From contig JAKBMK010000025.1 in assembly GCA_021831595.1 (NCBI GenBank), forward strand, positions 63,114 to 127,113: DNA of 64,000 nt, given 5' to 3'. Numbering within the stretch: position 1 is the stretch's first letter; every line of letters starts with the position of its first letter. The DNA is from a bacterium (GTDB lineage: Bacteria; Patescibacteriota; Minisyncoccia; Phycocordibacterales; UBA9973). Positions 3,464-63,276 of this stretch are shown here, piece after piece. The notes under the pieces are model-generated. The model saw only the letters and a program-made list of their open reading frames with translations. It was not told where the DNA came from and made no database searches. A program made the translations under genes and the position numbers.

Positions 3464-5566
3464 ATGGCTAAAAAAGAAGAAGTAAAAAAGGTTAAAAAGG
3501 ATAGTTATGGAGCCGAGCAAATTTCCGTTTTAGAAGGGCTTGAGCCTGTCAGACGTCGTCCCGGCATGTATATCGGATCAACTGGCATAGATGGACTTCA
3601 TCATTTGATTTGGGAAATTTTTGATAACTCTCGCGATGAAGCGATGGGAGGATTCTGTGATCATATCGAAGTTACACTCTTGCCAGACAATTCTGTTCGA
3701 GTGGTAGACAATGGACGTGGTATTCCTGTTGATATACACCCAAAGACAAAAGTTTCTGCGCTTGAGACAGTTATGACGACTCTACACGCTGGAGGAAAAT
3801 TCGGAGGGGATGATAGTGGTTATAAAGTTTCAGGAGGACTTCATGGAGTTGGAGCTTCAGTCGTGAACGCCCTTTCTATCTATACCAAAGCCGAGGTTCA
3901 TAAAGATGGAGGTAAATATGTTCAAGAATATTCTCAGGGTAAGAGAAAAGCCGCTGTTAAGAAAGTAAGTAGTACGAAGAATCATGGAACGATTATATCT
4001 TTTCAACCAGATGAAGAAATTTTCAAGCAGGTTAGATTTGATCCTGATACAGTTATTGCTCATCTACGTCAACAGGCTTATTTAGTGAAAGGTCTTCGTA
4101 TTGATATTATCGACGCCCGCGAATGGGATCCGATAACAGGAGGCAAGGGCAAAAGTAGTGACTATGAAAATGCTTTTTGGTTCTCTGAACTCGAGTTGGA
4201 AGTTCCTTCAACAACATTTTATTTTGAAGGAGGACTGGTATCTCTCGTAAAGTTTTATAATAAATCTGAGAAGCCAATACACTCTACTGTATTTTATGTA
4301 GAGAAAGAGATAGACCAAGTTGGAGTTGAAGTGGCCTTGCAATATGTCGATGGTATTAATGGTGATATCATTCCTTTTGCAAACAATATTCACAATCCAG
4401 AAGGAGGTACTCATGTCACAGGATTCAAAACAGCGCTCACCAGAATACTCAATACCTATGGTAAGAAGAACAATCTGATCAAAGAAGCCGATGGAGGATT
4501 CACAGGAGATGATGTCCTAGAAGGACTCACGGCTGTGGTGTCTGTGAAGCTTCGTGAAATTCAATTCGAAGGTCAGACGAAAGCTAAGCTTGGATCAACG
4601 GAAGCTCAAGGTGCAGTTGCAACTGTCTTCGGAGATGCATTTAATGCTTTCTTGGAAGAGAATCCAGATGAAGCTAAAGCTATAATAAGTAAATCTCTTC
4701 TTGCTCTGCGAGCTCGTAAAGCTGCTAAAGCTGCGAAGGATTCCATATTGCGTAAAGGTGCTCTTGAAGGTATGACTCTTCCTGGAAAGCTTGCAGACTG
4801 CCAAGTCAAAGATGCTGAAAGTGGAGAACTCTTCATTGTGGAGGGAGATTCTGCTGGAGGTACTGCTAAAATGGGACGCGACAGAAAGACTCAAGCGATC
4901 TTGCCTCTTCGAGGTAAAATACTCAATGTCGAGAGAGCTCGTCTTGATAGAATGCTAGGATCTGAACAGATCAAGAACTTGGTGATAGCCATGGGTACAT
5001 CGATCGGAGATACTTTTGATATAAATAAAATGCGCTATCACAAAATAATTCTTGCGACAGATGCCGATGTGGACGGAGCGCATATCCGTACTCTTATACT
5101 CACTCTTATGTATCGTTATTTCAGACCAGTATTGGATGCAGGCTATGTCTATATCGCTCAGCCACCACTATTTAAAATAAAGAAAGGTAAAGAAATTTTG
5201 TACGCATATACAGACGAAGAGAGAGATAAAATTTTAGGTAAAGATGCACCTTCTCTCGAAGAATTGCTAGTAGAGTCTGCTAATGAAGAAGGAGGGCAAG
5301 AAGAACCAGAGGAAGAGGAAGAAGAAAATCCAAAAGCAAAGAAAACTCAAAAGATTCACGTCCAGAGATACAAGGGTCTCGGAGAAATGAATGCCGAAGA
5401 ACTCTGGGAGACAACCATGGATCCAGGCAGAAGAATTTTGAAACAAGTTTCTGTTGTGGATGCTGAAGATGCCAATAAAGTATTCGATATGCTTATGGGC
5501 TCGGAAGTTCCTCCTCGTAAATCATTCATCCAATCTCACGCCAAAATGGCAAATCTAGATATATAA
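3464..5566 (+). CDS. gyrB: DNA gyrase subunit B
   Basis: GHKL ATPase motifs (LHHLIWEIFDNSRDEA, GLHGVGASVVNALS), Toprim (EGDSAGG), C-terminal QRYKGLGEM, acidic insert EEEEEE. Confidence 0.95.
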   Translation: MAKKEEVKKVKKDSYGAEQISVLEGLEPVRRRPGMYIGSTGIDGLHHLIWEIFDNSRDEAMGGFCDHIEVTLLPDNSVRVVDNGRGIPVDIHPKTKVSALETVMTTLHAGGKFGGDDSGYKVSGGLHGVGASVVNALSIYTKAEVHKDGGKYVQEYSQGKRKAAVKKVSSTKNHGTIISFQPDEEIFKQVRFDPDTVIAHLRQQAYLVKGLRIDIIDAREWDPITGGKGKSSDYENAFWFSELELEVPSTTFYFEGGLVSLVKFYNKSEKPIHSTVFYVEKEIDQVGVEVALQYVDGINGDIIPFANNIHNPEGGTHVTGFKTALTRILNTYGKKNNLIKEADGGFTGDDVLEGLTAVVSVKLREIQFEGQTKAKLGSTEAQGAVATVFGDAFNAFLEENPDEAKAIISKSLLALRARKAAKAAKDSILRKGALEGMTLPGKLADCQVKDAESGELFIVEGDSAGGTAKMGRDRKTQAILPLRGKILNVERARLDRMLGSEQIKNLVIAMGTSIGDTFDINKMRYHKIILATDADVDGAHIRTLILTLMYRYFRPVLDAGYVYIAQPPLFKIKKGKEILYAYTDEERDKILGKDAPSLEELLVESANEEGGQEEPEEEEEENPKAKKTQKIHVQRYKGLGEMNAEELWETTMDPGRRILKQVSVVDAEDANKVFDMLMGSEVPPRKSFIQSHAKMANLDI

Positions 5567-5570
5567 TATA

Positions 5571-5608
5571 AACAAAATCTCCTTATTAATAATAAGGAGA
5601 TTTTGTTT
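5571..5608 (+). terminator. rho-independent terminator hairpin after gyrB
   Basis: aaacaaaatctcctta..taaggagattttgttt perfect stem followed by T-rich run. Confidence 0.6.
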
Positions 5609-5668
5609 ATGGTAGACAATTTTATTTAAACGGAGTACGATGAATAATAAATTTTAAACTTACAAGGT

Positions 5669-6106
5669 ATGATTTATAACGAAAAACCAAAAAACTTTTC
5701 TCCGGAAATAGAGGTAGTTGCTTGCTTGATGGAATTTAATGGAAAATTTGTTTTATTACATCGCCAAGACAACAAAATACACGGAGATAAGTGGGGTCAA
5801 CCTGCAGGGAAAGTAGATCTTTCAGATGCTGATATTTTCGATGCAATGACAAGAGAATTGAGAGAAGAAACGGGGATAGAAATAAAAAAAGAAGATTTAT
5901 CTTTCTATAAAACATTTTTTGTTTCTCATCCAGATAGAAATTTCCTTTATCATTATTTTGTTCTACATCTAAAGAGAAAGCCCAAAATTATTCTCTCAGA
6001 CAAAGAGCATAAAGATTTTTCCTGGAAAACCCCACTTGAAGCCTTAGAAATGCCACTTATACAAGATGAGGATCATTGCATAAAGCACTATTACGGTCTT
6101 AAATAA
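5669..6106 (+). CDS. Nudix hydrolase
   Basis: Nudix box GKVDLSDADIFDAMTRELREETGIEI (REx2EExGI). Confidence 0.8.
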   Translation: MIYNEKPKNFSPEIEVVACLMEFNGKFVLLHRQDNKIHGDKWGQPAGKVDLSDADIFDAMTRELREETGIEIKKEDLSFYKTFFVSHPDRNFLYHYFVLHLKRKPKIILSDKEHKDFSWKTPLEALEMPLIQDEDHCIKHYYGLK

Positions 6107-58842: not shown

Positions 58843-59406
58843 ATGGAAACAAAATATAAAAGTTCAAAATTTGCTACATATTCTCAATATATTGCTGCAC
58901 CAATAATAGTAGGAACTCTTTTATATTATTTATATCTACTTTTTATAGGAGTAAATCTCACAGAAGAAGAATTATTCTTTTTCCCATTTTGGTTTTGGGC
59001 TTCAATCGTGGTAATTATAAATTCTATTAAATTAAGATATGTAAATATAACAGAAAATAATATTTTAATGAAATCTTTGTTAGAGAAAGAGATTCTTTTG
59101 TATAAAGACATAGAATGGATTAATCAAAACATTTTTGGTTCAAACTGGTATATCATTACTATAAAATATAAGGATATTAAAAAAGGAAAATCAAAAATTA
59201 TCTTTGTTTTTCCTGAAATGTATATAGCAAGAGAAAACCTTTCTTTTTATAAAGAGCTTAATATGACAAAATACATAAGAGAGCAAATACTCAAAGTAAA
59301 TACATCTTATCGGGTAGAGGACGAGCCTTCTCGCTGGTATTTAACTAAGTGGATATTTTTATCTTTTTTGCCATTTATTATTATTTCATTTCTGTTAATT
59401 GTTTAA
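58843..59406 (+). CDS. membrane protein with bacterial PH-like (YdbS/DUF304-like) region
   Basis: Two N-terminal TM, a soluble beta-rich segment, C-terminal TM. Confidence 0.35.
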   Translation: METKYKSSKFATYSQYIAAPIIVGTLLYYLYLLFIGVNLTEEELFFFPFWFWASIVVIINSIKLRYVNITENNILMKSLLEKEILLYKDIEWINQNIFGSNWYIITIKYKDIKKGKSKIIFVFPEMYIARENLSFYKELNMTKYIREQILKVNTSYRVEDEPSRWYLTKWIFLSFLPFIIISFLLIV

Positions 59407-59453
59407 ACGAAAAACTGCACAAGCAAGACCTGTGCAGTTTTTAATTTGGGTAG

Positions 59454-60971
59454 CTATTTCAATATTTTTATATCTGCTCCAATTTTGTTTAGACGTTCGG
59501 CGATTTCTTCATATCCGCGATTGATCATGTAGACATTGCGAAGGATAGAAGTACCATTTGCTCCGAGCATGCCAATAAGAATTATCATGGCCGGACGGAG
59601 AGCTGGAGGGCAGACAACTTGAGCTGGCTTTAATGTTGTGCCGCCCTGGATATAAACTCTGTGTGGGTCGGCGAGGGTGATGCTTGCTCCTAAACGATTA
59701 AGCTCGGTAAAATATATTGCACGATTCTCATATACCCAGTCATGGATCATTGTCTGACCTTTAGCTTTTATGGCGATAGGTACGAAGAACGGAAGATTAT
59801 CCATATTTATACCAGGATATGGGAGAGCATGAATTTTATCTTCTAATGCTGTGAGTTTTGATGGGAGGATTTTGATATCCACTAGGTTTGTCCTACCATT
59901 ATATGATTTGTAGATTTTAGATAATTTATATTTAAGTCCCATTCTCTTCAATTTTTCAAGTTCTAGTGAAAGGAAGTCGATAGGCGAGCGGGTAATAGTG
60001 AGCTCTGAGTCTGTAGTTATAGCAGCCGATATGAACATCATAGATTCGATAGGGTCCTCACTATTCGTATACTCAACATCTATATTGATATCTTTCACTC
60101 CATGGATGATAAGTGTACTTGTGCCTATACCATCAATTTTCACACCAAGCTTTTCAAGGAAAAAGCAGATTTCTTGCACCATGTAGTTGGCACTTGCAAA
60201 TCTGATAGTTGTTGTGTCGTTTATTCTTGCTACTGCAGTGAGTATATTTTCGCAGGCTGTATCTCCAGCTTCGTACATGACAATGTCAGCTCCCTTTAAT
60301 TTTTTACTTTCTATTTGATAGGCACTATTTGTTGTTTTGATCTTTACCCCTAAATCCTCTAGTGCATAAGTATGAGCAGAAATAGTACGCTTACCAAGCT
60401 TACACCCAGAAGCATGAGGGATCGAAAATGAAGGCAAGAGATGAATAAGTGGGCCAATAAGCATTATGACTGAGCGGGTCTTGATTGCAGATTCGACATT
60501 TATCTTATCCATTTTAAACTCTTTAGGTGGAGTTATTATCAAAGAGTTTTTATCAATCCACTTCACAGAAACGCCGATACTTTCTATTATTTCTATGACT
60601 CTGTTTACTTCTTCGATACGAGCGATACCATGGAGAGTTGTCTTGCCACGATTGAGCAGGGAAGCGCATAGGAGTCCTACTGCTCCATTTTTAGAGAAGT
60701 TGGTGGCTATACTTCCATGCAATTTCTTGCCACCATTTATCTGGAAATCGATGGAATTATTTATTGATACTATCTGGTGTTCGAGCACTTCACTTATCTT
60801 GCTTAATATCTCAGTACTGAAATTCTGTTCACCTTTCTCCATTCTTGCGACAGCTGATTGCGACGTCTCAAGTGCCTTAGCGAAAGAGTCTTGGGTCATT
60901 CCTCTGCGTTCACGAAGTTCCTTTATAAAAATACCTATTTTTTGTTGATCTGTTTGTTTCATACTAGTCAT
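59454..60971 (-). CDS. murA: XRE-family HTH domain fused to UDP-N-acetylglucosamine 1-carboxyvinyltransferase (MurA)
   Basis: Residues 1-70: LRERRGMTQDSFAKALETSQSAVARMEKGEQN (HTH_XRE). Remainder aligns along full-length MurA (INGGKKLHGSIATNFSKNGAVGLL..., Cys loop HASGCKLGKRTISAH, C-terminal NRGYEEIAERLNKIGADI). Confidence 0.85.
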   Translation of the reverse strand: MTSMKQTDQQKIGIFIKELRERRGMTQDSFAKALETSQSAVARMEKGEQNFSTEILSKISEVLEHQIVSINNSIDFQINGGKKLHGSIATNFSKNGAVGLLCASLLNRGKTTLHGIARIEEVNRVIEIIESIGVSVKWIDKNSLIITPPKEFKMDKINVESAIKTRSVIMLIGPLIHLLPSFSIPHASGCKLGKRTISAHTYALEDLGVKIKTTNSAYQIESKKLKGADIVMYEAGDTACENILTAVARINDTTTIRFASANYMVQEICFFLEKLGVKIDGIGTSTLIIHGVKDINIDVEYTNSEDPIESMMFISAAITTDSELTITRSPIDFLSLELEKLKRMGLKYKLSKIYKSYNGRTNLVDIKILPSKLTALEDKIHALPYPGINMDNLPFFVPIAIKAKGQTMIHDWVYENRAIYFTELNRLGASITLADPHRVYIQGGTTLKPAQVVCPPALRPAMIILIGMLGANGTSILRNVYMINRGYEEIAERLNKIGADIKILK

Positions 60972-60973
60972 TA

Positions 60974-60991
60974 TATATCATATATGATATA
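60974..60991. promoter_or_regulatory. perfect 18-bp palindrome TATATCATATATGATATA in the 33-bp murA/murB divergent spacer; overlaps murB -10 TATAAT (60988-60993)
   Basis: Sequence equals its own reverse complement. It sits 3 bp from the murA start and 14 bp from the murB start. Confidence 0.6.
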
Positions 60992-61004
60992 ATAGCAAAT
61001 AGTT

Positions 61005-62024
61005 ATGGAAATAAAGGAATATATAAATATAAAGCCATTTTCGAGCCTTAAAGTAGGCGGGCAGTTTCGATATTTTTCTGTTATATCTAAAATAGAAGAT
61101 TTAAAAGAAGCTATTAATTTTGCCAAAGAGAAAAATGTAAAAATTTTTGTTCTTGGTGGAGGTTCAAACATTGTCTTTTCAGATGGAATTATAGATGTGC
61201 TAGCTCTCAAAATTGAGATGAAAGGTTTCGCAGTAGTTTTAGAGAGTGATGGCTATACAGATATCAAAGTTGGTGCTGGAGAAATTTGGGATGAAGTTGT
61301 TTCTCGTACGGTAGATATGGGTTTATCAGGGATAGAATCGTTATCCGCAATTCCTGGAACAGTTGGGGCAAGTCCAGTGCAGAATATCGGAGCATATGGG
61401 TCTGAAATTAAAGACACAGTAACAGAAGTAGAAGTCTACGAAATTACAACAGGTAAGATTTTTAATATTGAAAACAAAGATTGTAGATTTGGCTACAGAG
61501 ATAGTGTTTTCAAGAATGAAGCTAGGGGTAGATACATCATAGCGAATGTTATCTATAGATTGACCAAATCAAATCCATCTATACCCAAGTATCCAGATGT
61601 TTTAAAATACTTTGAAGAAAGAGAAATATATGGCCCCACATTGTCTCAAATTAGAGAAGCTATCATTTTTATACGCAGAAACAAACTTCCAAATCCAAAT
61701 GAAATTCCAAACGTTGGTTCATTCTTCAAGAATCCAATAGTTCAGAATGGAGTTGCAGATAATATTAAAAGAGATTTTCCTAATGCAAAATTCTTCGCGC
61801 TAGATGATGGGTTTACCAAGGTTCCAGCTGGTTGGCTCATAGAGAATGCAGGGCTTAAAGGCAAGGTCTTTGGCAACGTCTCTGTTTATGACAAGAATGC
61901 TTTAGTCTTAGTAAACAGTGGAGAAGCAACAAGCGAGGATGTAGTAAATGCTCGTAATGAAATAGTAAAAGTAGTGAAAGAAAAATTTGGCATTACGCTT
62001 GAACAAGAGCCAGAGATTGTATAA
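61005..62024 (+). CDS. murB: UDP-N-acetylenolpyruvoylglucosamine reductase
   Basis: FAD-binding VLGGGSNIVF, C-terminal MurB motifs. Confidence 0.9.
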   Translation: MEIKEYINIKPFSSLKVGGQFRYFSVISKIEDLKEAINFAKEKNVKIFVLGGGSNIVFSDGIIDVLALKIEMKGFAVVLESDGYTDIKVGAGEIWDEVVSRTVDMGLSGIESLSAIPGTVGASPVQNIGAYGSEIKDTVTEVEVYEITTGKIFNIENKDCRFGYRDSVFKNEARGRYIIANVIYRLTKSNPSIPKYPDVLKYFEEREIYGPTLSQIREAIIFIRRNKLPNPNEIPNVGSFFKNPIVQNGVADNIKRDFPNAKFFALDDGFTKVPAGWLIENAGLKGKVFGNVSVYDKNALVLVNSGEATSEDVVNARNEIVKVVKEKFGITLEQEPEIV

Positions 62025-62061
62025 TTGATTTTATGTGAATTTCTAGTATACTTGTTCTATT

Positions 62062-62142
62062 GCCGGGGTGGCGTAATGGTAGCCGCGCTCGACTCAAAAT
62101 CGAGTCTCGCAAGAGGTGGAAGTTCAAGTCTTCTCCCCGGCA
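62062..62142 (+). tRNA. tRNA-Leu (anticodon CAA), long variable arm, no encoded CCA
   Basis: GCCGGGGTGGCGTAATGGTAGCCGCGCTCGACTCAAAATCGAGTCTCGCAAGAGGTGGAAGTTCAAGTCTTCTCCCCGGCA. Confidence 0.9.
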
Positions 62143-62145
62143 CAG

Positions 62146-63276
62146 ATGAATAATTCGCTTTCATATATAGAAATCTCAAAAGAGAATTTGATGCACAATA
62201 TCAAGCAATTTAAGGGTTTGCTTAAGAAGGATACAAAAGTAGCAGCTGTTATCAAGGCCAATGCTTATGGCCACGGCGATAAAGAAGTGGCTAAAATAGC
62301 TAGTCCTTATGTGGATTATTTTCAAGTAGATAGTATAGAAGAAGCAAAGAGGGTACGAAGTGTCAGTAAAAAATCAATACTTATATTTGGATATACAAAT
62401 CAAGATGGCATAAGGCAGGCAATAAAACTCAATGCTATTCTTTCTGGTTTTGATCTTGTGCACTTGCTTCTGATAAATCACGTAGCAGGGTCTTTGAAAA
62501 AGAAAGTGAAGGTTCACCTGGCTATAGATTCTTATTTGGGGAGAGAAGGAGTAATGCCTTCACAAGTAGAGAATATAATTAAAGAAATAAAAAATCTGAA
62601 GAATATTATTCTTGATGGAGTGTATTCACACTTTGCGAACATTGAAGATACGATGAATACGACTCACGCTAACAGGCAGATAGATACATACCATAAATGC
62701 GTCGAAATATTCAGAACAAATGGATACAAGAATATAAATACTCACATATCTGCAACTTCTGGAATTCTTGTGTATGAAAAAGGGGAGAATCTGCACAGCA
62801 TCGTTCGTCTTGGTATTGGGCTCTATGGTATGTGGCCAAGTGAACACCTAGAGTATTTGAATAAAAAGAAAATAAATTTGAAACCAGTTCTAAAGTGGGT
62901 GACTCACATCGCTCAGGTAAAGATTATTCCTGCCAATCATCCTATTGGCTATGGACTTACATATATAACAAAGAAAAACACGAAGATTGCTGTAGTACCG
63001 CAAGGGTACTTTGACGGACTAACTCGTACAATGTCGAATAACGGCGAATTCCTTATAAAGGGAAAGAAAGCTAAAATACTTGGCAGAGTCGCGATGAATA
63101 TGACGGTTGTAGACGTCTCAAATATCAAAGATGTAATACCAGGAGATGAAGTGGTGATAATCGGAGCCCAAGGTAAGATTCAAATAACCGCCGAAGATGT
63201 AGCCAAAAAGATGGATACTATAAACTACGAGGTAACTACCAAGATTAGTGCGCTGCTCCCTAGGATTATTGCTTAA
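62146..63276 (+). CDS. alr: alanine racemase
   Basis: AVIKANAYGHG PLP-lysine motif, C-terminal MNMTVVDVS. Start at ATG 62146, after the tRNA; ORF-track 62116 overlaps the tRNA. Confidence 0.9.
   Translation: MNNSLSYIEISKENLMHNIKQFKGLLKKDTKVAAVIKANAYGHGDKEVAKIASPYVDYFQVDSIEEAKRVRSVSKKSILIFGYTNQDGIRQAIKLNAILSGFDLVHLLLINHVAGSLKKKVKVHLAIDSYLGREGVMPSQVENIIKEIKNLKNIILDGVYSHFANIEDTMNTTHANRQIDTYHKCVEIFRTNGYKNINTHISATSGILVYEKGENLHSIVRLGIGLYGMWPSEHLEYLNKKKINLKPVLKWVTHIAQVKIIPANHPIGYGLTYITKKNTKIAVVPQGYFDGLTRTMSNNGEFLIKGKKAKILGRVAMNMTVVDVSNIKDVIPGDEVVIIGAQGKIQITAEDVAKKMDTINYEVTTKISALLPRIIA

Follow-up and report, generated by a model that had tools for sequence, protein, structure and literature searches.

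How bacteria control transcription for the committed step in peptidoglycan synthesis, which is catalysed by MurA, is poorly understood. The known control of MurA is post-translational, via feedback by UDP-N-acetylmuramic acid (UDP-MurNAc) and via ClpCP/ReoM proteolysis, and is not exerted by the enzyme on its own transcription. The 64-kb stretch of DNA analysed here (contig JAKBMK010000025.1, positions 63,114 to 127,113 of the forward strand; hereafter the window) encodes a MurA that itself appears to be a transcription factor: an XRE-type helix-turn-helix (HTH) domain precedes the complete enzyme in one chain (HTH-MurA), and a perfect 18-bp palindrome, its proposed operator, lies between murA and the divergent murB gene. 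Canonical MurA proteins (those of E. coli and E. cloacae, and MurAA and MurAB of Firmicutes) share with HTH-MurA the two-domain EPSP-synthase fold and the Cys loop; the equivalents of K22, R120, D305, R371, and R397 are kept in HTH-MurA, which also adjoins murB. In contrast to canonical MurA, HTH-MurA bears an extra N-terminal DNA-binding domain.

Two kinds of described regulators are comparable with this protein. BirA (biotin ligase/repressor), PutA (proline dehydrogenase/repressor), and NadR likewise combine a pathway enzyme and a DNA-binding domain in one chain, and in HTH-MurA, as in these proteins, the operator would lie within the promoter of genes of its own pathway, here murA and murB. 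HTH-MurA differs from them in its enzyme (MurA, peptidoglycan synthesis), in its XRE/Cro-C1 HTH fold, and in its operator; moreover, ligand control is established for BirA and PutA but can only be supposed for HTH-MurA. The second kind comprises XRE autorepressors, such as Gp49/HigB-type antitoxins, HipB, PezA, C.AhdI, and C.BclI, which have the same HTH subtype with the helix xSQSx[VI]xRxExG and, as proposed for HTH-MurA, a palindromic operator in their own promoter; stand-alone members bearing the identical 18-bp site are described below. Autoregulation of toxin-antitoxin operons by the antitoxin HTH at a promoter palindrome is well established. In HTH-MurA, the HTH is joined to a 430-aa enzyme and not to a short dimerisation or toxin-binding tail, and, whereas a type II antitoxin has an adjacent cognate toxin gene in its operon, no toxin partner occurs in the window: murA is monocistronic between its promoter and terminator, and its neighbours are murB and a membrane protein gene. 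As judged from sequence, the locus has the hallmarks of a trigger enzyme, i.e. an enzyme and a DNA-binding domain in one chain and an operator common to the murA and murB promoters, and HTH-MurA is a computationally well-supported candidate for a system of this type with a novel pairing of an XRE HTH and MurA. No description of the fusion or of its operator (16-mer ATATCATATATGATAT) was found in full-text searches of the literature.

The HTH-MurA open reading frame (ORF; 59454..60971, minus strand) is uninterrupted and encodes 505 aa. The true start is very probably the second ATG, at 60962, because homologs (502-504 aa long) begin with MK(K/Q) and the first ATG, at 60971, lies inside the -10 hexamer. 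The Pfam EPSP_synthase match spans aa 79-494 (E 3.3e-40) and covers positions 2-417 of the 417 of PF00275. The protein scores 311.9 bits with the NCBIfam MurA model NF006873 (cutoff 297) and 301 with the stricter MurA equivalog TIGR01072, which is under the 392.7 cutoff of that model; a full-length EPSP-synthase-fold domain that exceeds a curated cutoff (NF006873) places it in the MurA class. Alignment with solved MurA structures locates the equivalents of E. coli K22/N23 in SKN, R91 in KTRS, C115 and R120 in SGCKLGKRT, D305 in EDPIE, R371 in YENR, and R397 in ALRP. In particular, the Cys loop ASGCKLGKRT is present, with the codon of C190 at 60402-60404. The preliminary description of this locus, which had claimed an XRE HTH fused to a full MurA with an intact Cys loop, was correct in this respect, and the intact catalytic motifs suggest that HTH-MurA is catalytically competent. 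The HTH_3-type domain assigns the N-terminus to the XRE/Cro-C1 regulators, and its closest solved relatives (the designed binder DBP48, a HipB-like Xre antitoxin, C.AhdI, C.BclI, and PezA) are dimeric DNA-binding XRE proteins. The recognition helix is nearly invariant among fused proteins of 29-91% identity. No second EPSP-synthase homolog was found in the window.

A monomer model of HTH-MurA built with AlphaFold 2 (AF2) on a 30-sequence alignment has a mean predicted local distance difference test score (pLDDT) of 91 and a predicted template modelling score of 0.86. Four helices are predicted within residues 5-60 (pLDDT 78-89); a low-confidence linker spans residues 61-71 (pLDDT <50 at residues 66-69), and a confident MurA fold extends from the linker onward. 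This enzyme part is modelled as a soluble fold, with no membrane-spanning helix. In the model, the HTH is a folded domain tethered flexibly to MurA by a linker of approx. 10 residues. No docked interface between HTH and MurA is seen in this monomer model, which gives no clue to allostery or dimerisation.

The palindrome takes up the murA promoter spacer and reaches into the -10 elements of both murA and murB (Table 1; region inspected, 59300-62200). Its consensus is TAT[A/C]TCA[T/C]AT[A/G]TGA[T/G]ATA. A promoter scan gives 10 of 12 consensus matches for murA, and the first seven bases of the extended -10 of murB, TGATATAAT, lie within the right half of the operator. The exact position and symmetry of the palindrome, the divergent orientation of murB, and the overlap with the murB -10, all of them claims of the preliminary description, were confirmed. 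Two of its distances required correction: with the murA start at ATG 60962, the spacer measures 42 bp, not 33 bp, and the palindrome lies 11 nt, not 3 bp, from the murA start (13 nt from that of murB). The murA mRNA is predicted to be leaderless, its transcript probably beginning at or adjoining the start codon, because the -10 ends 7 nt upstream of the ATG. No RNA element was detected by Rfam in the murA-murB spacer; the only match was a tRNA. Within the window, no second site occurs at ≤3 mismatches. On the window alone, a shuffle test is weak, at least one match being found in 10% of shuffles; by contrast, conservation among species (see below) speaks overwhelmingly against chance.

The fusion is widespread. 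The identical protein is encoded on four contigs (NCBI, ENA, Logan), and each of the 120 best database clusters (84-100% identity) combines HTH and EPSP_synthase; their named members belong to Candidatus Nomurabacteria, Paceibacteria or Paceibacterota, i.e. bacteria of the candidate phyla radiation (CPR). A scan with one genome per GTDB species yielded 570 relatives, the best 80 of which form the comparative set (80 loci, 526 kb in total). The HTH is encoded in 70 of these 80 species loci, so that both the recurrence of the protein in independent assemblies and the N-termini of related MurA proteins bear out the fusion. A search of representatives clustered at 50% identity showed that the architecture is conserved down to 30% identity (P0122, P0125, P0129, P0131, P0137, P0142, P0145, P0218, and P0242). 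P0122 represents a cluster whose 246 members come from Nonomuraea (Actinomycetota) isolate genomes and are annotated as MurA or as 'helix-turn-helix domain-containing protein'.

The palindrome accompanies the HTH. When the loci were scanned at ≤2 mismatches, exactly one copy, always upstream of murA, was found in 69 of the 70 loci that encode the HTH; in L028, where no copy was found, the upstream sequence is just 18 nt long. No extra sites occur at this threshold in the 526 kb except in L022 and L045, in which two overlapping low-complexity matches adjoin the operator. The site is retained irrespective of whether the upstream neighbour is a divergent murB or a co-directional tRNA, and its flanks are unrelated among many loci. 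Alignment of the 70 upstream regions on their start codons reveals the conserved block TTGCA(A/T)-TAT[A/C]TCATATATGA[T/G]ATA-(A/T)AAT. Across the 70 sites, twelve of the 18 positions are invariant, two further positions differ in one site each, and the remaining variation is limited to the symmetry mates 4/15 and 8/11. Such variation at symmetric pairs is the pattern expected of recognition by two identical subunits, not of a promoter spacer. The operator lies 9-15 nt from the murA ATG in 50 of the 70 loci (mode 11) and 7-13 nt from the murB ATG in 30 of 36; in some loci, an insertion shifts murA 109-150 nt away, and the operator remains beside murB.

In the ten remaining loci of the set, MurA (77-82% identity) lacks the HTH and starts a few codons ahead of the enzyme domain, mostly directly after a tRNA. 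Neither tblastn with E values up to 10 nor three-frame translation detected an HTH in these ten loci, and none contains the palindrome, even at ≤3 mismatches. In a neighbour-joining tree of the enzyme domain, which carries no support values, they branch within the HTH-bearing clade at five or more distinct positions. Because these loci are scattered in the tree and lack both HTH and site, the two appear to have been lost jointly several times while the enzyme was retained. Thus, a palindromic operator in the regulator's own promoter is conserved along with the HTH: it is present at 69 of the 70 loci that encode the domain and at none of the ten that do not. A synteny comparison, made for the orthology of the HTH-less loci, found the flanking genes poorly conserved over the whole set. 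In most of the HTH-less relatives (L067 and L076-L080), the murA ATG lies 0-10 nt past the 3' end of the tRNA with no recognisable promoter, which suggests that in these relatives murA came to be co-transcribed with the tRNA after loss of the HTH-operator module.

Moreover, the recognition helix and the site co-vary. In the 70 species loci, operator position 15 is T in 33 of the 41 loci with the helix SQSA[VI]AR and G in 27 of the 29 loci with SQSS[IV]PR (Fisher p = 7e-10, a statistic inflated by relatedness). Position 4, the symmetry mate of 15, shifts likewise, and the same trend is seen among 18 metagenome loci. This co-variation can be taken as supportive, and not more than supportive, of the pairing of HTH and operator.

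The same site precedes fused genes whose products are only 30-52% identical to the window protein. That of Nonomuraea (L084; 70% GC, 52% identity), the nearest fused relative recovered beyond the Paceibacteria clade, has ATCTCATATGTGAGAT 13 nt before its ATG as the sole match in 7.5 kb, and on a metagenome contig of 64% GC (L162) the exact site stands before HTH-MurA; retention of an AT-rich palindrome at 64-70% GC rules out a by-product of base composition. Among fusions of 30-42% identity, the site takes the form TTGACA-ATATATCATATATGATA-TTAAAT, followed by 7 nt and the ATG, in L081; ATATCATATATGATAT, abutting the ATG, in L208; AATATCAAATATGATATA in L209; TATAACATATATGCTATA, with both half-sites altered at the same position, in L210; and ATATCAGATATGATAT in L087. 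In L085, whose fusion is also in this identity range, a site with one mismatch heads a NUDIX-NTP_transferase-HTH-pseudoMurA operon. Of the distant proteins, P0129, P0131, P0137, P0142, P0145, P0218, and P0242 keep the HTH, with the nearly invariant helix TSQSA[VI]xR[IM]ExGxQN, but are devoid of a Cys loop and of equivalents of R91 and R397. These pseudo-enzyme paralogs, in which PEP-binding arginines are gone, have the same HTH, operator, and mur-promoter position as HTH-MurA, whereas in the window protein the catalytic residues are all retained. Their genes lie amid genes for peptidoglycan precursors and are arranged as murB<-murA / HTH-pseudoMurA->ddl->mur ligase in L081 (1624-4503), murA<-mur ligase / HTH-pseudoMurA->mur ligase in L208, murB<-murA / HTH-pseudoMurA->mur ligase in L210, and murB->relA/spoT->HTH-pseudoMurA in L209. 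Of the six loci examined, three (L081, L208, and L210) contain a separate canonical murA beside the paralog, and the MurA proteins encoded there carry the GGC loop. Such an arrangement suggests that the paralogs are dedicated regulators that evolved from the fused enzyme. That they keep a MurA-like fold of approx. 430 aa after the loss of catalysis argues for a contribution of the fold itself to regulation, via ligand binding or oligomerisation.

Side observations were made on two of the distant fusions. P0125 (529 aa, Logan contig) has an intact Cys loop and a degenerate recognition helix, with GITLEEQLGMEQ in place of TSQSAVARMEKG; its HTH may be decaying, as an intermediate on the way to loss. 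In Nonomuraea sp. NEAU-A123 (L084), genes for a phage-type integrase and a small XRE protein come after the HTH-MurA gene (4595-5986), an arrangement that hints at an accessory second murA, possibly acquired horizontally.

An exact-pattern scan of metagenome contigs for the 18-bp site yielded 80 readable loci, which were searched with a profile built from fused HTH domains. The site lies directly upstream of an HTH-MurA gene of 52-80% identity in 18 of them, and a gene for a family-type HTH is found downstream of the site in 33. In approximately 15 of these 33, the product is a stand-alone protein, 70-130 aa long, that shares the recognition helix (e.g., KTSQSAVARMESGKQN in L133), and several of the stand-alone XRE genes are second in a two-gene operon after a Gp49/HigB-type toxin gene (PF05973, E ~1e-22). 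In seven such toxin-antitoxin operons (L116, L117, L122, L146, L148, L159, and L161), the identical 18-bp palindrome lies between a TTGACA -35 and a TATAAT -10. It appears, therefore, that this toxin-antitoxin family has the same operator as HTH-MurA and that the site goes with the HTH and not with murA. In the other 47 of the 80 exact matches, no family HTH was found nearby; these are most simply chance or unrelated matches, since hundreds of chance matches would be expected by the author's estimate for AT-rich DNA and the size of the database.

The most probable interpretation is that bifunctional HTH-MurA binds the palindrome and represses its own gene and murB, as the preliminary description had in part proposed; all computational tests made point in this direction. 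The architecture, the catalytic motifs, and the promoter/operator geometry are directly observed, as is the fact that HTH and palindrome occur together, are lost together, and co-vary; further comparative support comes from the site in GC-rich genomes, in paralogs of 30-40% identity, and in stand-alone XRE antitoxins with the same helix, and from variation that is restricted to symmetric half-site positions and tracks the helix variants. In this model, two copies of the HTH would occupy the 18-bp palindrome as a sequence-specifically bound dimer, and the occupied operator would block RNA polymerase at both overlapping promoters. Repression of both genes is suggested because the palindrome fills the murA spacer and overlaps both divergent -10 elements; the preliminary description had allowed for either repression or activation, and a site between -35 and -10 argues for the former and against the latter, a sign that is read from position. 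Repression would affect murA itself and murB, and possibly the whole murB-tRNALeu-alr transcript, and synthesis of MurA and MurB would thus be self-limiting. Since both genes appear to be leaderless or nearly so, control would act chiefly through occupancy of the promoter. The module of promoter, operator, and HTH probably derives from an autoregulated XRE antitoxin gene (of a Gp49/HigB-type pair) and would have been fused to the 5' end of murA; elsewhere, a duplicate of the fusion would have lost its catalytic residues and become a dedicated regulator situated between mur operons.

Several points weigh against repression by HTH-MurA. DNA binding by the protein is itself deduced from sequence comparison. 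MurA is monomeric in solution, while a palindrome has to be bound by two copies of an XRE HTH, and the AF2 monomer with its floppy linker offers no route to dimerisation. The statistics of co-occurrence and co-variation are confounded phylogenetically, and the tree lacks support values. Moreover, the palindrome holds extended -10-like sequences on both strands, and its conservation could partly reflect promoter function. The single site in 64 kb does not support a wider regulon.

A further proposal, which remains tentative, is that HTH-MurA is a metabolite-sensing one-component switch, in which the open-to-closed transition of MurA, driven by UDP-N-acetylglucosamine (UDP-GlcNAc) and phosphoenolpyruvate (PEP) or by UDP-MurNAc, controls the pairing of the HTH domains and, as a consequence, occupancy of the operator. 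DNA binding could be modulated by UDP-GlcNAc, PEP or UDP-MurNAc through the open and closed states of MurA; coupling to cell-wall precursor flux by such ligand control is a matter of pure supposition, and the pseudo-enzyme paralogs that retain the fold are the only hint of ligand switching. If the proposal is correct, transcription of the first two peptidoglycan genes would follow precursor flux directly, and the dead paralogs would sense UDP-sugars and repress entire mur operons. Fosfomycin, by alkylating the sensor Cys, would also be predicted to elicit a response in transcription, and a widespread, undescribed layer of transcriptional control of cell-wall synthesis would exist in CPR bacteria and some actinomycetes.

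It is likewise possible, with a comparable degree of doubt, that HTH-MurA is a plain autorepressor that adjusts the levels of MurA and MurB through negative feedback on protein concentration and whose DNA binding is not influenced by the catalytic state of MurA. The flexible, low-confidence linker in the AF2 model, the HTH not being docked on the MurA body, is consistent with such a protein, as are autoregulation by the stand-alone antitoxin relatives, which have no enzyme domain, and the repeated loss of the HTH while murA stayed. However, the MurA-like fold kept by the dead paralogs is hard to explain unless it helps to regulate. Plain autorepression is a live sub-case of repression by HTH-MurA and does not contradict it.

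A compact bidirectional promoter, consisting of two back-to-back extended -10s, with the HTH engaged in some other function, is a highly improbable explanation of the palindrome. It draws on the TGATATAAT-like extended -10s that can be read on both strands and on the weak shuffle test in the window. However, the full palindrome is kept where the upstream gene is a co-directional tRNA and no divergent gene exists, in genomes of 64-70% GC, and in toxin-antitoxin operons that encode the same HTH subtype, and it vanishes with the HTH in 10 of 10 loci; furthermore, sigma-70 spacer sequences normally vary between species with proteins of 70% identity. The alternative of a mere AT-rich bidirectional promoter, which the preliminary description had entertained, is therefore rejected.

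Slightly less credible still is the view that the HTH is a protein-binding or localisation module that tethers MurA to a cell-wall complex while another factor binds the palindrome. Its model is RodZ, in which an XRE-type HTH binds MreB, and XRE-like HTHs in cell-wall proteins can indeed bind proteins instead of DNA. RodZ combines its HTH with a transmembrane segment and a periplasmic domain, whereas in HTH-MurA the enzyme follows directly; moreover, no RodZ-type model is among the HTH matches, of which HTH_3 is the best in Pfam, and among solved structures the closest relatives are XRE repressors and antitoxins that bind DNA. The site has no conserved neighbour that encodes another regulator, and the recognition helix co-varies with it. 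Finally, an assembly, frameshift or gene-calling artefact that joined a small XRE gene to murA is refuted, because the same continuous ORF recurs in hundreds of independent assemblies (NCBI, JGI, ENA, and Logan) and in Nonomuraea isolate genomes.

Repression by HTH-MurA would be of interest for several reasons. The operator is defined at base resolution, and its pairing with HTH-MurA is conserved in hundreds of CPR genomes, from bacteria that are reduced, mostly uncultured, and equipped with very few regulators. The same protein-operator pair in cultivable Nonomuraea opens the idea to direct bench testing. Dead paralogs, repeated losses, and antitoxin-type relatives suggest a stepwise history that leads from an antitoxin-type HTH, via fusion to an enzyme, to a dedicated regulator. 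As MurA is the target of fosfomycin, the action of this antibiotic could be linked to gene expression if MurA senses its own ligand state.

Table 1. Features of the HTH-MurA locus (positions in the window)
Feature	Position	Strand	Remarks
Intrinsic terminator hairpin and U-run directly after the murA stop	59412..59440	(-)	-20.7 kcal/mol, z-score -5.2
HTH-MurA coding sequence	59454..60962	(-)	502 aa from ATG 60962 (very probable start); mechanical ORF reaches ATG 60971
MurA catalytic domain	59463..60746	(-)	aa 76-503; NF006873 match, end-to-end alignment with solved MurA structures
XRE/Cro-C1 type HTH domain	60783..60926	(-)	aa 16-63 of the 505-aa ORF; Pfam HTH_3 PF01381, E 7.9e-13
Recognition-helix region TSQSAVARMEKGEQN	60822-60866	(-)	inside the HTH domain of HTH-MurA
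murB promoter	60965..60993	(+)	extended -10 TGATATAAT 60985-60993; weak -35 TAGTCA 60965-60970
murA promoter	60970..60998	(-)	-35 TTGCTA 60998-60993, 17-nt spacer, -10 TATAAT 60975-60970
Perfect 18-bp palindrome TATATCATATATGATATA, proposed HTH operator	60974..60991	(.)	conserved across relatives
murB (UDP-N-acetylenolpyruvoylglucosamine reductase)	61005..62024	(+)	NF000755 357.8 bits, cutoff 277
tRNA-Leu(CAA) and alanine racemase (alr)	62062..63276	(+)	tRNA 62062-62143; probable alr start 62146

As regards transcription units, murA can be regarded as a single-gene unit because a strong hairpin with a U-run follows its stop codon; none of 200 shuffles was equally stable. This hairpin has U-runs on both sides and lies between murA and a convergent ORF (58843-59406), and thus looks like a bidirectional intrinsic terminator. 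On the other side, murB, tRNA-Leu(CAA), and alr may share an operator-controlled transcript, since no terminator-like site was found between murB and the alr start in a scan to 62300. The mechanical alr ORF (62116..) begins within the tRNA; the true start is probably the ATG located 3 nt past it.

A DnaA-box sequence, T[TG]ATCCACA, perfect or near-perfect, is present in 10 of the 34 relatives whose upstream neighbour is other than murB, and it is absent from the window. It lies 20-60 nt upstream of the operator (L021, L025, L031, L034-L036, L039, and L041-L044, among others). This DnaA-box-like sequence might couple expression of murA to DnaA; alternatively, it might be what is left of the N-terminal coding region of murB (GATATCCACAT).

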